IMG/VR virus record: IMGVR_UViG_3300037840_000505
DNA: 64,000 nt
Strand: one strand, 5' to 3'
Origin: an uncultured virus (IMG/VR IMGVR_UViG_3300037840_000505)
Lineage: Duplodnaviria > Heunggongvirae > Uroviricota > Caudoviricetes
Each line of letters begins with the position of its first letter. The first letter of the stretch is position 1. Shown here one piece after another: positions 4,217 through 48,461 of this stretch. Position numbers and translations under genes: made by a program. Below the pieces are notes generated by a model, which was not told where the DNA came from, ran no database searches, and saw only the letters and a list, made by a program, of their open reading frames with translations.

Positions 4217-7023
4217 CGCTCCAATGGCGCGGACGCCGCAGGCTGCGGCATCAACCCAGGAAGGATACCGCCTCCCACCCGTTTCATATAATCCTGGATG
4301 GTCTCGCCCGGCTGCCTCTGTGGGGTGACGCTTGTCGGGGCTGGGGTATTGGCGGAAGCCGCTCCGGTCAGCGCGCGCGTCTTGTCCTGCAGCGACTGCT
4401 GCAGCGTCTTCTGATAGGGCGCTATCGCTTCGGGCTTGCCCATGAAATCGGGCTTCGCCGGATCGAGCGCATCGCCGGGATTTTTGTTGGCGGCGCGCAA
4501 TTCGTCCATCTTCTGGTCGACCGCGTATTCGAAGAGGTAGCGCTGCGACTTTCCCGACTCGTCAATCTTCCCCATCAGCGGGTTCGAGTGATCGATCTGC
4601 GGGCCGTAATCCTCAAAAAACTTCGCGCGACGAGCCGCCAGCTTTTCCCCGCCGGGCGTCATCACCTCATTGAACTGCTTCTGGACGAATTCGAAATCGG
4701 CTTTGTTGAGGCTGTGAGCGTTGTCGAGGATTTGCGACATGTCGGTGATCTTCTGATCGTTCCCATAGGGAAGGCGGATACGGTCGAGCAATCCCAAGGC
4801 GTTGCGGTAGGAGACCGCCGCCGGTAATCCGGTTCCCGGCGGGTTCGCCATGAAGTCCAATACCCTCGTGCGCAGCTCGGGATCGTTCTGGAAGGCCGGA
4901 TCATTCACCACGTCCTTTGCGGTGAATTTGGGTTGGTCCGAAAAGGCGTCTTGCTGGTATTTGGTGATCGCCTGGTCGAGGAGCTGCTTTTGCGCCTTGG
5001 CGTCCTGTAGCTGCTGGCGGTTGTAGTCGCTCTCGATCGCGTCGTAATTCTGCCGCGCCAGGGCCTTCGCCTTGAATTCCGTGTCGATCGGCAGGTTCAT
5101 CGCCTCGATGTGGCGGAACATGCCGGCCAGGGTCATCGTCTTCTCGATGCCCGGGGGTTGGCCCGGCTGGACAGCGGCGGGAGCTGGCTGGGCACCTACG
5201 ACTTGATCGGTTCCTTGCGGCGCCGCGATCAGCTGCGCCGCTTTCTGCGCATAGTCCTTGTAGCCCTGGGGGGAGGGATGCACATCGTTTGTCGGAAGCG
5301 GTCCGGCGAAGGGCACGCCGTGCTGCTGCGCGATTTGCGCCAATTGAGCATTATAGGGCGCGAATTTCCCGGTATCGACCCCTGCCAGTACCGGGGTGGC
5401 GCCGGCCGCTTTGAGCGCGTCGAGCTGGCGCCCGACGAACTGAAGCTGGAACTCGGGGGCGTAATGCGTCAAGTCGCCGTTCATCAGCCCTGACGACCAC
5501 AATACGGTCTTGCCCGCGAATTTCTCCGGGTGTGCTTCGATATAGGCGAGGTTGTCCTGTGGGTTGCGACCGCCGGCGGCGTCGGAATCGGGCGCGGCGG
5601 CGTCGGTTGAATGCGCCGTTCGTGACCCAGGGAGACCCGCAGCGCTCTGGAACCCGAAGCCGATACTGTCGCCGGCGCCGAGATCAAACTTGCCAGGCTG
5701 CGCCGGCCGGCCTGGCCCACCCTGATCGATCGCCCGTGCGTTGGCATAGGCGGTCGCATAAGAAGGGTTGGTCGCGGTGACGCTTTTGACTTCGGCCGGG
5801 TTCGGATTGCCCGTCAGATAGCCGGCGAGAGCCGCTTGCCAGCTGCCGCCCTGTTGATGAAGGTCGGCCATGTAATGTGCGGCGCCTTCAAGCGATGACG
5901 GTACGTCATTGACGTTGACACCGTATTTCTGCGCGGTTTCATCCTGGAACTGGGCAATACCCTTGGCGCCCCCGTTGGGTCCTACCCCAGAGTTGGCGAC
6001 GCCCGGGTTCCAGTTAGACTCGCCCATAATCTGGTGCGAGAAAATCTCCCACGGCACCCCGTATTTCGCGGCGGCCTGGCGCCCCATCTGCTCGAAATCG
6101 GCGCGCGGTATCTGCGGCGGCGCGACCGCACCACCCGGCGCTACAGCAGGGAGGTTTCCGCCATAGGCCGCGTGGATCGCATCGTCGGCCGCGCCCTTGG
6201 CCCGGATGTCGGTCAGCTTTGACTGAAGCTTCTGGTCGAGGGCATCGTACCGGGGGCCCTTGAGCAACTGGCCGTAGGGCGATTGCAGGGCTTTTTGCGC
6301 GAAGGCGAGGTCTCTGGGGTCCTGGCTCGTGAGGAGCGACTCGATCGAGCGCTCGGTGACCGCGGCGTTCGCCTTGCTGACCGCTTCGTCGATCAGATCC
6401 TGGCTGGCGTTGGCGCCGTATTTGAGGCGCACCTGGTCGGTCGCTGCGGACCTTGCCTTGTCGAAAGCCGCCTCTAAGGCTTGCGGGTCCTTGGGAGCGG
6501 ATGCGGCGAGATCGGACGCTCCGGCGAACCGCGCGTTGTTGACCCCTTCCTGGTAGGTGTTGAACTGCGAATCGTAATGCGCGCCGATGGTCGAAAGCAA
6601 CCGGCGCATCGCATAGGAGGTTTCGTTGTTGAACAGCAATTCCTGGTCCGACGAGAACAATTGGCCCTTGTACTGATCTCGCAGATCGAGGATCTTCTGG
6701 CGCACGCTTGCCTGCGCCGTGAGTGCGTCTTCTCCCCTTGTCCCCAAGAGCCCGCGATCGGGCGACCCGTCCGCACCGGTCTTCGACGGGTCGCCGTAGA
6801 CCAGCTTGTTCGATTCGTCTTCGAACTGGTTGGCGAGCTGCTGCGCCGAGACCTCTTCATAGGTCTTCGCCGCCGAGGTTGCGCCCGCTCCCGCCCGTTC
6901 CAGCCCTTGGCCGATCGCTGCGCCAAAGGCCGCAGGGGTCGGGTTGATCCGCTGATAGTCTTCCGGTACTTCGGTCCGCGGGAGGACCGAAGGGATGCCT
7001 TCATCGTAGGGTACGGTTGCCAT
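4213..7023 (-). CDS. Internal virion (ejection) protein with lytic transglycosylase (SLT) and SGNH hydrolase domains
   Basis: 936 aa helical protein. SLT motifs ESNWNP, GAKGIAQF, GAAHYM, ALAGY; SGNH motifs GDS...G...GLMN...NDVHP. Lies downstream of the tail tube genes. Confidence 0.85.
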   Translation of the reverse strand: MATVPYDEGIPSVLPRTEVPEDYQRINPTPAAFGAAIGQGLERAGAGATSAAKTYEEVSAQQLANQFEDESNKLVYGDPSKTGADGSPDRGLLGTRGEDALTAQASVRQKILDLRDQYKGQLFSSDQELLFNNETSYAMRRLLSTIGAHYDSQFNTYQEGVNNARFAGASDLAASAPKDPQALEAAFDKARSAATDQVRLKYGANASQDLIDEAVSKANAAVTERSIESLLTSQDPRDLAFAQKALQSPYGQLLKGPRYDALDQKLQSKLTDIRAKGAADDAIHAAYGGNLPAVAPGGAVAPPQIPRADFEQMGRQAAAKYGVPWEIFSHQIMGESNWNPGVANSGVGPNGGAKGIAQFQDETAQKYGVNVNDVPSSLEGAAHYMADLHQQGGSWQAALAGYLTGNPNPAEVKSVTATNPSYATAYANARAIDQGGPGRPAQPGKFDLGAGDSIGFGFQSAAGLPGSRTAHSTDAAAPDSDAAGGRNPQDNLAYIEAHPEKFAGKTVLWSSGLMNGDLTHYAPEFQLQFVGRQLDALKAAGATPVLAGVDTGKFAPYNAQLAQIAQQHGVPFAGPLPTNDVHPSPQGYKDYAQKAAQLIAAPQGTDQVVGAQPAPAAVQPGQPPGIEKTMTLAGMFRHIEAMNLPIDTEFKAKALARQNYDAIESDYNRQQLQDAKAQKQLLDQAITKYQQDAFSDQPKFTAKDVVNDPAFQNDPELRTRVLDFMANPPGTGLPAAVSYRNALGLLDRIRLPYGNDQKITDMSQILDNAHSLNKADFEFVQKQFNEVMTPGGEKLAARRAKFFEDYGPQIDHSNPLMGKIDESGKSQRYLFEYAVDQKMDELRAANKNPGDALDPAKPDFMGKPEAIAPYQKTLQQSLQDKTRALTGAASANTPAPTSVTPQRQPGETIQDYMKRVGGGILPGLMPQPAASAPLER

Positions 7024-7028
7024 GAAGT

Positions 7029-7105
7029 TGGTGCTGACGGCCTCGATTCGAACGGGCGACCTGAAGTTTACAAAACTCCTGCTCTACCGACTGAGCTACG
7101 CCAGC
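7029..7105 (-). tRNA. tRNA-Thr(TGT) with encoded CCA
   Basis: GCTGGCG TA GCTC AGTCGGTA GAGC A GGAGT TTTGTAA ACTTC AGGTC GCCCG TTCGAAT CGAGGC CGTCAGC A CCA folds as a cloverleaf; one extra base in the T-stem. Confidence 0.9.
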
Positions 7106-7106
7106 A

Positions 7107-36780: not shown

Positions 36781-37563
36781 TCACGTCCGCATCCCGTAAT
36801 GGTCGGCATCGAGGGCCGCTCTTGGGGTCCATTGTTCTTCGCGCGGCTTTCGTTCCGGCCAGAGGCTTTGGCGCACCACGTCGCTGTCCAAGGGACGGAA
36901 GGCAGCGATCGGCAGCCCGGACATCACGAGGTAGCGCAGGCAATCCATCAGATGGTCGTTGGATTTGACGACCTTCCCCTTGTCGTCGCGGCGGTAGATG
37001 CGGAATTCGCCCATCAGGTTGACGAGGGTCGAAAATATCTTGAGCCGGCCCGACGACATCCGCGACCAGACCTCGTAGATCCCGGCCTCGACCGCGTTGT
37101 CGGCCGGGGTGATCCGCAGACCGAGGCCCTGGTACATCGTGGACAGCCGCGTCCCATCGATCTGGCTCCGGCCGCGAGCCGCCGGATCGTGCACTCCGGG
37201 TATCCAGGCGCCGCGCGCGCGGATCGCCTGGGCATGAACGGCGGGCTCGACCTCGCCCCGGTAATGCTCGGAATAAAGGTAGAGGACATCGGCTTCGGGA
37301 TCGAGCGCGCCCCAGAGCGCGGCTGTCCTGTTCCACCCGACGTCCAGGGCGTAGGCATGCTTCCAGTATTTCGGCAGCTCGAACGGCGCGCAGAGGAGAT
37401 CCTCTTCCGGCACCGGGTAGATCGCCCCCGACCCCAGCCGCGGCAGCCCGCGCATACGGGCGTCCCGTTCATGCGGCGGATAGGCTTCGGCGAGAGACTT
37501 CTTGGCTTCGGGCGAGAGATGAGGAACATCGTCCCAGCCCGCCATGACGACGTATTTGGTCAC
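36781..37563 (-). CDS. Terminase large subunit, C-terminal nuclease part (P22 gp2-like)
   Basis: WDDVPHL...YPPHERDAR..G.P.LGSGAIYP, ALDVGW, DHLMDCLRY. Confidence 0.9.
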   Translation of the reverse strand: MTKYVVMAGWDDVPHLSPEAKKSLAEAYPPHERDARMRGLPRLGSGAIYPVPEEDLLCAPFELPKYWKHAYALDVGWNRTAALWGALDPEADVLYLYSEHYRGEVEPAVHAQAIRARGAWIPGVHDPAARGRSQIDGTRLSTMYQGLGLRITPADNAVEAGIYEVWSRMSSGRLKIFSTLVNLMGEFRIYRRDDKGKVVKSNDHLMDCLRYLVMSGLPIAAFRPLDSDVVRQSLWPERKPREEQWTPRAALDADHYGMRT

Positions 37564-37564
37564 T

Positions 37565-39040
37565 CTACCAGCCCCACGCCGTCTTGCGCAGTTCCTCGGT
37601 CTCGGGGTAGGCCCCGCCGGGGAGGAAGTTGAGGACGGTCGCCGATATCCCCTGGAGCGGGGTGAAAAGGCCCATGATGAGCCCCGAGGGTTCGGCGGGG
37701 TTGGTCGACATCGTGCGGGTCAGGGTCTCGGTGTAGATGTCGAAGGGCGGCTCTTCGTCGAGCAGCGCGCCGTCGATCTTCGCCGATTGGAAGCTCTTGC
37801 GCTTCTGTTCATAGGCCTTGTAGACCAGATGCGAGCTGTAGCCGCTGTCGCGGTAGCGGATTTCCGCGAAATCAAGCGCATCGGGGATGCCGCCGCGGGT
37901 CGGCGAACGGCCGATCTTGTCGAAGGGGATGAGGCCGGTGCCGGGCTTCTCGGGCGGTCCCATCAGGGTCAACTGCATCCCTTCGCGCACCGCCTTGGCG
38001 TCTTCCCCCGCCGCCCACCAGGTTGTCGGACGCTCGAACCTGCGGCCTTCCCACCAAAGGGGATACCAGCCGGTCAAATGAAGCGCCGCCTCGTAGCATC
38101 CGGCATAGGTCTTGCCGACGCGGTTGCCGGCGATAAAGGCGCGCTCGTGGTGCTTGGCGCCGGCCTTGAAGAATTCGAGATGCTTCGGATAGAGCTCGCG
38201 CCGCAGCGGGCCTTCCTCGGGGAAGGCATCGTAGAGCGCGCGGCGTTCGGCAAGATATTCATCGAGGCTCTTGCCCTCGGCGGCCGCGGCCCTGGCGGCG
38301 TTGGCGTCGATCGTGCTGCCGCCGTATTCCGCATCGACATTGACCCGAACCCATTCGTCGCCCTTACCCCGGCTGGCCTGGCGCTGGTAGAAATTCTTCG
38401 GGAGGTAATGGCCGCCCTCGGCGAGGTGGGTGCGCCCTCCCGGTTGGCGGTAGCGCTCGATGTCCTGGCGCTTGGCGAGGAAATGGTCTTCCGCCGGCAT
38501 GCGCGAGGTGAGAATGACCCCGGACCACAGCGCATCTTCATGCAGCGAATCGGGGTAGGTTCCGGCGGCATCGATCGCGTCGGCGAGGATGTCCTCGGGA
38601 TAATGTTTCGCCCAATCGAGCCAGATCCCCGTGGTCGGCAGTTGCAGGAGCTTCTTGCGGTGCTCGGGGCGGTCGAGGCTCAGAAAGTGGATTTCGAGTT
38701 CGACCGCGACGATCCGGCCCTCGCGCTGGCCGATGCCGTAGCGCACCCAATGGGTCAGGGCTTTTTCGTCCCAGCTGCCGATATCCGTGGGGACGCGCGC
38801 CTTCCAGGCATCGATCGTCTTGCTCAATTTCGCCATGTCGGGAGCGCAGGCGAGCCAGCGCCAGCGCGGCTGAAAGAGACCCTGGCGGGCGAGCTGCTGG
38901 GGCTTCAGGATGATGTCGGCGACCGCGGTCCAGCGCCGGCCGCCCTTCATCGGACCCATCAGCGCCCGCGCGAACCCCTGGCTCTCGGCAAAGGCCGACG
39001 AGACGGGTCCGGGAGAGGTCCAGTTGAGGCTGATCGGCAT
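37565..39040 (-). CDS. Terminase large subunit, ATPase part, with an extra degenerate N-terminal terminase ATPase domain
   Basis: C-half: AGNRVGKT, HLTGWYP.WW.G, LLDEEPP, FTPLQG. N-half: GPMKGGRR, FLSLDRPE..KKLL, TGIWLDW, RQPGG...AE...LP..FY, V.AEYG. Confidence 0.88.
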   Translation of the reverse strand: MPISLNWTSPGPVSSAFAESQGFARALMGPMKGGRRWTAVADIILKPQQLARQGLFQPRWRWLACAPDMAKLSKTIDAWKARVPTDIGSWDEKALTHWVRYGIGQREGRIVAVELEIHFLSLDRPEHRKKLLQLPTTGIWLDWAKHYPEDILADAIDAAGTYPDSLHEDALWSGVILTSRMPAEDHFLAKRQDIERYRQPGGRTHLAEGGHYLPKNFYQRQASRGKGDEWVRVNVDAEYGGSTIDANAARAAAAEGKSLDEYLAERRALYDAFPEEGPLRRELYPKHLEFFKAGAKHHERAFIAGNRVGKTYAGCYEAALHLTGWYPLWWEGRRFERPTTWWAAGEDAKAVREGMQLTLMGPPEKPGTGLIPFDKIGRSPTRGGIPDALDFAEIRYRDSGYSSHLVYKAYEQKRKSFQSAKIDGALLDEEPPFDIYTETLTRTMSTNPAEPSGLIMGLFTPLQGISATVLNFLPGGAYPETEELRKTAWGW

Positions 39041-46177: not shown

Positions 46178-46205
46178 TTGACAGGTGACAGAATGTCACT
46201 ATGCT
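46178..46205 (+). promoter_or_regulatory. Sigma70-type promoter with a palindromic operator in the spacer
   Basis: TTGACA-16bp-TATGCT; GTGACA-GAA-TGTCAC at 46185-46199. Confidence 0.75.
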
Positions 46206-46258
46206 TTGACCCGTTCGCCGCGGGCTGCAACCCCGGCACTCACCAACGGAGTAACGCG

Positions 46259-46435
46259 ATGAGCGATCTTTCCATGTCGGTCGGGCGCGATTACCGCACC
46301 TCGAGCCAGTACGAATATGTGATCTACCGCGATGAGCGCGTTGTCGCGCGGCAGGGTTTTTACCGCAACTACAGCCAAGCCAAACGCGCCGGGCTGGCAG
46401 CCGCGGCGAAGCTCACCGTTAAGACGGAGGCTTGA
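46259..46435 (+). CDS. Small early protein
   Basis: SD ACGGAG; first gene after the promoter. Confidence 0.65.
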   Translation: MSDLSMSVGRDYRTSSQYEYVIYRDERVVARQGFYRNYSQAKRAGLAAAAKLTVKTEA

Positions 46436-46438
46436 GCC

Positions 46439-46669
46439 ATGACCATACATTTGAGCGTCGATCCCGATGCCTCGCTGCTGGCTCGGCTCTACGAAGTCGA
46501 TATTCAGCGCTGCGGCGAGCACTGGGGAACCTTGAGCACCATCGCGTTGAGCCCGATGCGCGCCTGCGAGATTGCCGAGCGCAAGGCATTCGAGGCCAAC
46601 GCCCGCGCCGGCGATCTCTCGGACTGGTTCGCCAGTGCCGTGCGCGAAGTCACCGACGAGGAGGGTTGA
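46439..46669 (+). CDS. Small early protein
   Basis: SD GGAGG. Confidence 0.6.
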   Translation: MTIHLSVDPDASLLARLYEVDIQRCGEHWGTLSTIALSPMRACEIAERKAFEANARAGDLSDWFASAVREVTDEEG

Positions 46670-46672
46670 GCT

Positions 46673-46882
46673 ATGAACTACGCAATCGAGTGCCGGCGGG
46701 TGCACACTCGCGGCCATTGGCTGTTTCTCGGCAATCATCGGTGCGACTTGGCGACCGCGAAATGCGTTGCGCAAGACACCGCGACCGAATTGCAGCGCGA
46801 AACGCGGGTTGTGAATTATGGGAAAACCTTTCGCATCTTTGCCGAGTTTAGCGCGCTCGGGCAGCCCTTGCGGCCAGAATAG
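46673..46882 (+). CDS. Small early protein
   Basis: SD GAGGAGG. Confidence 0.55.
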   Translation: MNYAIECRRVHTRGHWLFLGNHRCDLATAKCVAQDTATELQRETRVVNYGKTFRIFAEFSALGQPLRPE

Positions 46883-46990
46883 CGCGACCCTGCTGTCTCG
46901 CCCGTACCTGGTGCGGGCGAGGTGGCAGGGCCGTCCGGCTCTGTACCCTGGCGCCGCCTGCAAGCGGTGCGACCCAACGGAGGATCTACG

Positions 46991-47860
46991 ATGTACGCCA
47001 ACACCATTTACGACGCCCGCGCTCGCTTCGACGGTTCCGCTCGCGCGATGACCGAGGACGAAATGCGCCGCAAGGCACCTTCGATCTTCGCGACCCAAGC
47101 GCACGAAAGCCGCTCCGAACGCTTTGCGCCCATCCCCACGATCGACGTCTTGCGCGGGCTGCAGGAAGAGGGATTTTACCCGCTCGCCTGCCGCCAGGCA
47201 CTTACCCGCGTCCCGGGCAAGGAGGATTTCACCAAGCACATGATCCGCCTGCGCCGATTGGATCAGGACGCCGCCTATAAAGTCGGCGACACGGTTTGCG
47301 AGATCGTTCTCAAAAATGCCAATGACGGCACGTCGGCCTATGATCTGATGGCCGGATTGTTCCGCATCCGGTGCTTGAACAGCCTTGTCGCGCAAACCGG
47401 GACGATAGACACCGTCAAGGTGCGGCACTCGGGCGACGTGCAAGGCAAGGTGATCGAGGGGACCTATCACGTGCTCGAGGAGGCGCAGAAAGCTTTGGCC
47501 GCACCGCAGGACTGGAGCCAGCTCACCATGGGACGCGACGCCAAGACGGTTTTTGCGGAAGCGGCGCACGTGCTGCGCTTCGGTGACGCGGAGGGTAATG
47601 TCACGACGCCGATCGCCGCGGACCAGCTGCTCAGCCCCCGGCGCTACGATGACCGGGCGGACGATCTGTGGACGACCTTCAATGTCGTGCAGGAGAACAC
47701 CATCAGGGGCGGCTTGCATGCCTGGGGACGCGACGCCAATAACCACCGGCGCCGCACCACAACCCGCGAGGTGAAGGGCATCGACCAGGACGTGAAGCTG
47801 AATAAAGCGCTTTTTGTCCTTGCCGATCGGATGGCGCATATCCTCAAATCGGCCGCCTAA
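46991..47860 (+). CDS. DUF932/DUF945 family protein
   Basis: APSIFA..AHESRSERF.PIPT, FTKHMIRLR, NANDGTSAY.L.AGLFRIRCLNSL, DLWTTFNVVQEN, DVKLNKAL. Confidence 0.92.
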   Translation: MYANTIYDARARFDGSARAMTEDEMRRKAPSIFATQAHESRSERFAPIPTIDVLRGLQEEGFYPLACRQALTRVPGKEDFTKHMIRLRRLDQDAAYKVGDTVCEIVLKNANDGTSAYDLMAGLFRIRCLNSLVAQTGTIDTVKVRHSGDVQGKVIEGTYHVLEEAQKALAAPQDWSQLTMGRDAKTVFAEAAHVLRFGDAEGNVTTPIAADQLLSPRRYDDRADDLWTTFNVVQENTIRGGLHAWGRDANNHRRRTTTREVKGIDQDVKLNKALFVLADRMAHILKSAA

Positions 47861-47872
47861 CCACGCAACGCA

Positions 47873-47910
47873 CGGGCGTCCTGGCTGCAACCAGGCGCCC
47901 GCCTTTTTTT
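47873..47910 (+). terminator. Intrinsic terminator-like hairpin with CTGCAA loop and T7 tract
   Basis: CGGGCGTCCTGG CTGCAA CCAGGCGCCCG CC TTTTTTT. Confidence 0.7.
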
Positions 47911-47923
47911 CGGAGCACAGGCA

Positions 47924-48133
47924 ATGACGCTGTACGAAGCCTATTTGGCCGGCTGGCAAAGCTGCTGCGATGGGGTTGACGGCCGATATTGGTTTACGCG
48001 ACCGCAGGACGTGGAACGCGAGCCCGCGCTGAGACGCGCGTGGCAACAAGGATGGAGCGACGCATTCGAGCGCGAAGAAGAGGACGAAGAGCCGTTGCCC
48101 GAAAGCTTCCTGTCGTTGGAAGATCAGACGTAA
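47924..48133 (+). CDS. Rmf/CrpP-fold-like small protein
   Basis: AYLAGW....G...RRAWQQGWSDA. Confidence 0.55.
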   Translation: MTLYEAYLAGWQSCCDGVDGRYWFTRPQDVEREPALRRAWQQGWSDAFEREEEDEEPLPESFLSLEDQT

Positions 48134-48242
48134 GCGCGGTCGCGGGCGGCGCCCCTGCAAGGGCCCGCCCGCTGCCCGCATTATCCCTCGCGACGCCAAC
48201 GGAGCCGTCGGGAGGGGATACGAGAGAAAAGGGGATATCACG

Positions 48243-48461
48243 ATGTCAGCAGCGGAATTCAAGGCATGGCGCGAGCGTCTGGGGTTGAGCCAGCGCGGCG
48301 CCGCGGCGCGGCTTGGCCTCTCCAAGCGCACGATCATCCGCTACGAGAAAGGCACGCACCGGGTCAACCGTCATGTCGCGTTGTCCTGCGCGATTGCCGA
48401 AAGCATGGTCAAGCCTCACCCGAAGGCCGCGCGCGCGGCGCTGCAGCCCGTCGAGGAATAG
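48243..48461 (+). CDS. XRE-family HTH regulator
   Basis: FKAWRERLGLSQRGAAARLGLSKRTIIRYEKG. Confidence 0.9.
   Translation: MSAAEFKAWRERLGLSQRGAAARLGLSKRTIIRYEKGTHRVNRHVALSCAIAESMVKPHPKAARAALQPVEE

Follow-up and report, generated by a model that had tools for sequence, protein, structure and literature searches.

Hairpins with a fixed CUGCAA loop on variable stems in the early-gene island of an uncultured tailed phage, and in unrelated phages

Introduction

Early takeover and anti-defence genes of a phage have to be expressed immediately, and their expression must then be damped. Few RNA-level devices are known that serve the timing of early genes: the hairpins associated with Aca1 and Aca2, processing of the kind found in phage T7, and intergenic ribozymes. 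Here, we describe four hairpins that present the same loop, CUGCAA, on different stems. They lie between the genes of a small island (46178 to 48461, plus strand, set in a minus-strand background) in a 64,000-nucleotide stretch of DNA from an uncultured virus (IMG/VR record IMGVR_UViG_3300037840_000505, Caudoviricetes). That whole stretch is called the window below.

Several described systems resemble this arrangement. The boxB elements of phages lambda, P22 and phi21 carry a fixed loop on a short stem. The RNA probe used for Aca1 has an ACAAC loop, with CCAAC before the Shine-Dalgarno sequence (SD), and the same report describes RNA motifs between the genes of one operon as well (PMC13551039, Table S6 for the probe). 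Intergenic hammerhead ribozymes have been suggested, in a review, to process polycistronic phage transcripts (PMC6765202). The stem-loops known as PeSLs provide a precedent for the swapping of gene cassettes at the level of DNA (PMC4122927). The element described here varies on a known theme, the control of phage early operons by leader hairpins. What is new in the window is the exact loop, which is found in unrelated phages with different regulators.

The four hairpins

All four hairpins lie where a preliminary description of the window had placed them, on the plus strand and between genes. Hairpin 1 occupies 46217 to 46237, hairpin 2 46951 to 46970, hairpin 3 (with the CC and the run of seven U behind it) 47873 to 47910, and hairpin 4 48142 to 48172. 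In local folds of 150 nucleotides, the closing pairs of the four form with a probability of 0.96-0.99 and the bases of the loop are unpaired with a probability of 0.98-1.0. Two details of the earlier account needed correction. The loop is a hexaloop, not a GNRA-like tetraloop; and the run of seven U exists, but begins at 47904, behind CC.

The word CTGCAA is not itself enriched in the window, where it occurs 32 times against 24.1 expected, a count that 7 of 100 shuffles reach. Likewise, four identical hexaloops anywhere in 64 kb appear in 62 of 100 shuffles under the same loose rule. Because four such loops are this common across the whole window, the signal lies in their clustering between genes on one strand. 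Within the 2.3-kb island, four identical hexaloops are observed on hairpins of at least seven pairs, and the maximum in 2000 shuffles is two.

Three of the hairpins had been said to be followed by CCAACGGAG. The positions are exact, and the window holds no other exact copy. The copies at 46243 to 46251 and 46974 to 46982 contain the SDs of the first open reading frame (ORF1, ATG at 46259) and of a gene with a DUF932 domain (ATG at 46991). The third copy (48196 to 48204) is not a ribosome site. It stands 24 nucleotides past hairpin 4, inside the loop of another hairpin (48182 to 48220), with no start codon behind it.

The stems, as first described, differ and still pair. Among eight CUGCAA hairpins from three phages, the loop is invariant, all four pairs change on both sides, and 31 of 32 cells are paired. 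The covariation score of this set is reached by none of 500 shuffles; the rows were selected as hairpins, so the pairing is partly there by construction. This covariation indicates a stem that needs only to pair, and a loop that would be the recognised part.

Rfam 15, at its gathering score, gave no family match in the window or in 12 related loci, and three loci searched by E-value gave none. A literature search, with most subscription journals outside its coverage, found no account of the element, by title or by the start of the abstract, among the papers listed. The hairpin element is real, and it is uncatalogued in Rfam 15.

The same loop in unrelated phages

A scan for the loop together with CCAACGGAG returned 54 non-self loci, five of them with a hairpin. 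Two of these five are one phage, in which the loop C(U)UGCAA is carried by six hairpins whose stems differ; five of the six precede a ribosome site. The single hairpins in the other three were rejected as chance, two (L094 and L122) because they lie inside coding overlaps and one (L134) because it has no start codon. The pattern GCCCTGCAAGGGC with CCAACGGAG gave no match.

The ATPase gene of that loop-bearing phage was traced to 21 loci. In many of 16 ATPase loci (63-100% identity), most island genes are preceded by a leader in three parts: a long irregular hairpin (A), an alternative hairpin formed from its 3' arm (B), and a loop-fixed hairpin (C) before the SD. In L149-L155 the loop was not seen. 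When 30 spacers between hairpin B and the ribosome site were taken from 12 loci, 27 of them folded, the other three being truncations by the search expression, and 27 of the 30 held YUGC. Their loops are CUUGCAA (seven), CUUGCA (six), CUUGCAAAC (three) and GCUUGCA (two), with CUGCAA, CUUGCAU, CUUGC, CUUGCU, CCGCAAC, CACGU and others occurring singly. A scan with the pattern of hairpin B gave, among the matches listed, mostly chance.

A second scan, for the exact CUGCAA hairpin with one fixed stem, gave 26 matches in 25 loci. Twelve have an ATG at SD distance behind them, and come from about eight distinct phages of 52-66% GC; the other 14, without a start codon, were taken as chance. One locus (L520) holds three copies, each on a stem of its own, and sibling copies on other stems occur both in loci of its type and in another locus (L535). 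Like hairpin 1, the first copy in L535 comes after a -10 box. In a third (L534), a copy precedes an ArdC gene; the loop could thus mark anti-defence genes.

Position is also conserved. From the end of the loop to the SD is 11-21 nucleotides in 34 of 39 rows, counted by a script that looked up to 30 nucleotides only. Nearly all SD-linked loops fall inside the island, in 14 of 15 cases (3 of 3 in the window, 3 of 3 in phage G002, 5 of 5 in G005 and 3 of 4 in G004).

The phages that carry the loop are not kin of the window phage. The window's portal is missing from all five records, their capsid and portal families differ from the window's, and tblastn gave no match to the window at E<1e-4. The loop also occurs with two families of helix-turn-helix (HTH) protein and with different promoter palindromes. 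Shared by phages of podo-, myo- and sipho-type whose regulators differ, such a loop would make a common expression socket for swappable genes.

Two other ideas about these loci were set aside. The loop was rejected as a -35 element because no -10 follows it. The GACTCC sites were considered as promoters of a T7-like phage RNA polymerase; PF00940 had no match in five records, and the control was likewise silent.

Several side observations concern the same phages. In the first cassettes of four of them (L141, L142, L145 and L148), GGAGUC, the ribosome site of the first gene, can base-pair with a GACUCC upstream. Hairpin B of the ATPase islands has a GUUC/GAAC stem similar to the hairpin that comes first in the Aca2 probe. 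A non-coding leader of 350-450 nucleotides separates the promoter from the first island gene in L162 (7530-7990), L142 (3900-4385), L148 (4940-5385) and L144 (4050-4460); those of L162 and L142 share blocks, and overlapping loci gave no Rfam match. Sites that resemble the host rrn boxA, early in two of these leaders (L148, ~5028; L144, ~4161), suggest rrn-type antitermination of those operons. Phage G002 has an ORF with an ADP-ribosyltransferase domain in its head region (L285, 6705-8081).

A proposed leader hairpin read beside the ribosome site

The explanation that we favour, tentatively, is that these are mRNA leader hairpins whose loop is read by a host factor beside the ribosome-binding site, and that this sets the expression of the cistron. 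The placement of the hairpins suits action on the next gene, in keeping with the translational or stability control that had been suggested for them. Here, host RNA polymerase would transcribe the island from one strong promoter of sigma-70 type (TTGACA-16-TATGCT, 46178 to 46205, plus strand), whose sequence has 10 of 12 consensus matches and whose start site would be near 46212. In front of each separately translated gene would stand a short hairpin, rich in GC, with C-U-(U)-G-C-A-(A) as its loop. This loop stands about 15-20 nucleotides 5' of the SD, which would put it at the upstream edge of the 30S footprint. Its reader would most likely belong to the host, as a conserved component of the machinery for translation or RNA decay, and not be a lineage-specific phage protein; a host factor is slightly favoured because the loop does not track HTH family or operator. 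Such a reader would promote the loading of ribosomes and protect the 5' end of each cistron. Separately, the HTH protein encoded at the end of the island would repress the promoter through a palindrome, by analogy with Aca.

Before the DUF932 gene, hairpin 2 would be the last unit of a three-part leader with the same A/B/C layout as the leaders of other loop-bearing phages. Hairpin A (46888 to 46930) has a 20-base-pair stem with four G-U pairs, and therefore forms on the transcribed strand only; the region from 46880 to 46995 folds at z -3.63. Hairpin B (46921 to 46947) is predicted to form once hairpin A is cut or melted. Hairpin 2 follows, with its loop 15 nucleotides 5' of GGAG. In the predicted fold of the uncut RNA, CUCUGU (46939 to 46944) pairs with the DUF932 SD; in that of an RNA begun inside the 3' arm of hairpin A, the arm captures CUCUGU instead. 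Hairpin A may thus be a site of RNase III type. A cut in its stem, probably by RNase III, would let the 3' arm refold and free the SD, and would leave the loop-bearing hairpin at the new 5' end. The predicted unpaired probability of the SD rises from 0.23 uncut to ~0.5 after the cut, and in 33 cassettes of other phages the mean rises from 0.28 to 0.42 (13 up, 2 down), although part of such a rise is expected anyway, because truncation removes competing sequence.

Besides this effect of truncation, several observations weigh against a loop-reading host factor. Hairpin 4 is away from any ribosome site, directly past the stop codon of ORF5. Hairpin 3 is terminator-like and is possibly a leaky terminator; it is absent from the calls of a terminator scan of the window. 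The SD of ORF1 is predicted to be mostly paired (0.22 unpaired). The motif, carried by other phages, is lacking in the closest DUF932 islands, where CUGCAA hairpins occur in 2 of 82 viral and genome loci as single chance-like matches; the flanks of 16 of 80 metagenome DUF932 loci, when inspected, showed no such loop. Islands of this kind carry other loops: a hairpin with a GGCA loop is repeated before the genes of a Bosea prophage, and one with an ACGG loop before those of a Stappia prophage. The main difficulty for a host reader is that the loop is lacking in host mRNAs. Compared with a reversed control in cellular genomes, it was found 14 times against 14 in 121 genomes, 6 against 3 in 301, and once against 10 in four. 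None of the 14 cellular matches is followed by an SD and a start. This lack of excess would be odd if a general host factor reads the loop. Finally, a small XRE HTH gene ends all five islands whose end is visible (the window, G002, G004, G005 and L237), and HTH is the only family common to the window and the other loop-bearing phages.

Such a distribution suits an alternative that we consider possible, if somewhat unlikely: the terminal HTH protein itself binds both the promoter palindrome and the hairpins, and either represses translation or is titrated. The palindrome GTGACA-GAA-TGTCAC (46185 to 46199, 6-3-6) lies between the -35 and the -10, is the sole full copy in the window, and is probably the operator of the terminal HTH. 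That function is supported by G005, where one and the same palindrome stands twice, at the promoter of the island and ahead of the HTH gene. Hairpin 1 has the Aca1 layout. A promoter inverted repeat precedes it, it is 21 nucleotides long, begins ~5 nucleotides past the putative start site and ends 21 nucleotides before the first ATG (46259), and its lower and upper stems are parted by a bulge, as in the published description (PMC13551039). The HTH gene (48243 to 48461, plus strand, 72 amino acids, XRE/Cro type) has the position of aca genes, and its profile matches Aca2 (9e-7), Aca10 (4e-5) and Aca1 (6e-5). The profile matches generic XRE proteins too, however, NE0471 best of all. A single-sequence search of the PDB gave no match for it, Foldseek none at E<=0.001 and NCBIfam none over the cut-off, and no close relative was found.

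It counts against the HTH as reader that the class of RNA motif does not track the lineage of the regulator. In phage G002, the CUGCAA/CUUGCAA loops recur although both the HTH family and the palindrome are others, and the loop is absent from all 25 HTH-relative loci examined (of 79 non-self loci, at 33-63% identity). The conserved feature of the Aca1 hairpin is its lower stem, whereas the stems of the window vary; moreover, in that report, translation was not silenced when Aca1 bound, and neither Aca10 nor Aca12 bound its own motif (PMC13551039). The loop described here is also relevant to how Aca1 can bind its hairpin and yet leave translation unsilenced.

There might, of course, be no reader at all. 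On this account, which we hold unlikely, the loop is a fold well suited to cap a hairpin of 5'-stabilising or standby type, was spread between phages by module exchange and is kept for its structure alone. Loop length does range from 5 to 9 nucleotides with some deviants (CACGU, CUUGCU, CCGCAAC), other islands use other loops, and in the window the loop also caps a terminator-like stem. Further, UGCAA forms a triloop closed by a U-A pair in stem-loop SL4 of the twister-sister ribozyme (PMC5660989). A generally stable loop would, however, be expected in host RNAs and elsewhere in the phage, and this one is common in neither. The loops are also better conserved than the stems, the reverse of neutral drift. 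Confinement to the island, covariation and the absence of a cellular excess together argue for a phage early-operon RNA signal, and not for a general stable loop.

A host reader might be reconciled with these counts by mimicry. The loop would then imitate a host stable-RNA ligand, and a host protein associated with the ribosome or with tRNA would dock beside each early ribosome site; we regard this as rather improbable. Nor do we give much credence to its evolutionary corollary, that unrelated phages converged on one loop, or traded it, as a phage-only translation signal that the host reads. In a Stappia genome, a stem-loop near position 1255 of the 16S rRNA contains CUGCAAC, and UUUGCAA is the anticodon loop of tRNA-Ala(UGC), on a stem of 5 base pairs; the commonest phage loop is CUUGCAA on ~5 base pairs. 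These matches are short and weak, and could be chance. Mimicry would explain both the spread of the loop across phages and its lack of enrichment in host mRNA. On this reading, the hairpin of Aca1 may belong to the same wider class.

Antitermination, DNA elements and ribozymes

The preliminary description had likened the hairpins to boxB and nut sites, at which an N-like phage protein on the hairpins modifies RNA polymerase. The likeness is not empty, in that boxB, too, has a fixed loop on a short stem, one copy stands directly past the promoter and one is terminator-like. Yet the host rrn boxA form has no match within two mismatches in the island. A crude motif scan of SD-led ORFs of 45-200 amino acids found none with an Arg-rich, N-like N-terminus. 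The copies are distributed gene by gene, one to each, at a fixed distance from the SD. Antitermination is thus very improbable here.

An element acting as DNA had also been proposed. The hairpins might be structures of single-stranded or cruciform DNA, or might anchor the recombination by which cassettes are swapped, as in PeSLs. In favour are the palindrome TGCA, the ability of the hairpins to fold as DNA as well, and the different gene content of the islands. Against this, homologous exchange would need more shared sequence than the stems have, the fixed loop is asymmetric and its orientation is the right one on the coding strand, and there is no promoter for each copy. Nearby stems rich in G-U, including the adjoining 20-base-pair stem, pair only on the coding, transcribed strand. 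The hairpins are positioned relative to the start of transcription and to the SD. We give a DNA-level role little chance. What survives of the first account is the RNA element itself: its loop is fixed, its stems covary, it recurs in other phages, and its placement suits an action on translation or stability of the next gene.

That the hairpin is a permuted twister-sister ribozyme, or the remnant of one, is scarcely credible. SL4 of that ribozyme contains UGCAA, and type II hammerheads occupy the same intergenic junctions in sister DUF932 islands. RF02681, however, was over its cut-off in none of five phage records and had no match in the window, and the L1 strands around the twister-sister cleavage site are absent. 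Neither its G-C closing pair nor its two extruded 3' bases are kept; here, the extra base is on the 5' side, and the pair that closes the loop varies. The candidate was rejected: UGCAA is shared with the ribozyme (PMC5660989, PMC11620745), but L1 and the model match are not.

The island and its phage

The window holds most of a tailed phage, whose minus strand encodes a T7-like tail, portal, capsid and terminase; its portal has only ~31% identity to those of named phages. A GapR gene is present, and the relatives of the DUF932 protein in Labrys, Ensifer, Stappia and Bosea are 66-75% identical to it. These two facts point to an alphaproteobacterial host, and the phage appears to be a podophage of alphaproteobacterial type. 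The nearest record is a 30.8-kb fragment that is not independent, because it is identical across the island; the collections searched yielded no close relative that has this island. Elsewhere in the window, a match to the terminase large subunit spans two neighbouring ORFs (37565-39040 and 36781-37563), and a tRNA-Thr(UGU) gene lies at 7033-7106 on the minus strand.

The island looks like an early accessory operon, and its role is probably host takeover or anti-defence. Behind hairpin 1 come ORF1 (46259 to 46435, 58 amino acids), ORF2 (46439 to 46669, 76) and ORF3 (46673 to 46882, 69), all on the plus strand, as are the genes that follow. The DUF932 gene (46991 to 47860, 289 amino acids) matches PF06067 with E 1.3e-36. 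Next is ORF5 (47924 to 48133, 69 amino acids), whose GGAG lies 21 nucleotides 3' of the loop of hairpin 3. ORFs 1-3 and 5 received no name in searches of Pfam, PHROG and NCBIfam, no Acr library being searched. The likeness of ORF1 to the genes that come first in two other islands is only 24%, and phmmer found no match for it in other loop-bearing phages. For ORF5 there is a weak RMF-like lead only (Atlas score 0.80, RMF on 11% of cluster members, no Pfam match); it has two occurrences of Y/W-x-x-G-W, which we take to be an RMF-like pattern, and its C-terminal tail is acidic. Between hairpin 4 and the HTH gene, the UAUCCC at 48182 could pair with either of two copies of GGGGAUA (48182-48240). 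The second copy is the SD of the HTH gene, which makes a translational switch of the regulator possible. A plasmid copy of DUF932 has been linked to phage selection in one preprint (10.1101/2025.06.20.660599).

Sister DUF932 islands show other devices. Type II hammerheads lie at 4847-4907 and 5150-5211 of L007 by Rfam matches, and between island genes of L002, L006 and L313 as judged by eye. Near the end of two islands (L003, 5741-5950; L519, 4711-4890), small genes of ribbon-helix-helix type replace the HTH, as for Aca14; the first call is a weak RepA match and the second was made by eye. In L004 (3400-8600), the island genes are each headed by a CAAUUGUG-type palindrome and GAAAGGA.

Comparison with known systems

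The boxB elements of lambda, P22 and phi21 share with the window a short stem and a fixed loop near an early promoter. They differ in that the window has no boxA or N-like protein that we could find, and has one copy per ribosome site. The early RNase III sites of T7 are, like hairpin A, long irregular hairpins between early genes of an operon transcribed by host polymerase, at which cleavage is predicted to expose the ribosome site that follows. The window has a duplex of about two turns between cistrons at one place only, the 20 base pairs at 46888 to 46930 before hairpin 2. We know of no T7 site that carries a second, loop-fixed hairpin, and a literature search for early processing of the T7 type found no paper, most subscription journals lying outside its coverage.

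The PeSLs of T4-type phages are likewise repeated stem-loops between swappable accessory genes. Each PeSL has its own promoter and a conserved stem (PMC4122927), whereas one strong promoter heads the island of the window and the stems vary. The SAS and ESAS of cluster K mycobacteriophages are phage-specific signals at the starts of non-structural genes, with an extended SD. Their arms are conserved and their pairing as RNA received little support from their authors (PMC3203893); in the window, by contrast, the arms vary and covary and the loop is conserved. The integron-like DUF1874 motif is a multistem element unlike the hairpins of the window (PMC5737381).

The closest likeness in detail is to the Aca1 and Aca2 motifs. 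These share with the window a promoter palindrome, a hairpin of about 20 nucleotides directly after the start site that ends some 20 nucleotides short of the start codon, a bulged two-part stem, a CAA-type loop, CCAAC before the SD, a small HTH as last gene and copies between genes (PMC13551039). The HTH protein of the window, however, is not assignable to an Aca family, and no acr gene was recognised, no Acr library having been searched. In the window the stems are free and the loop is fixed, and that loop is common to phages with different HTH proteins and different operators.

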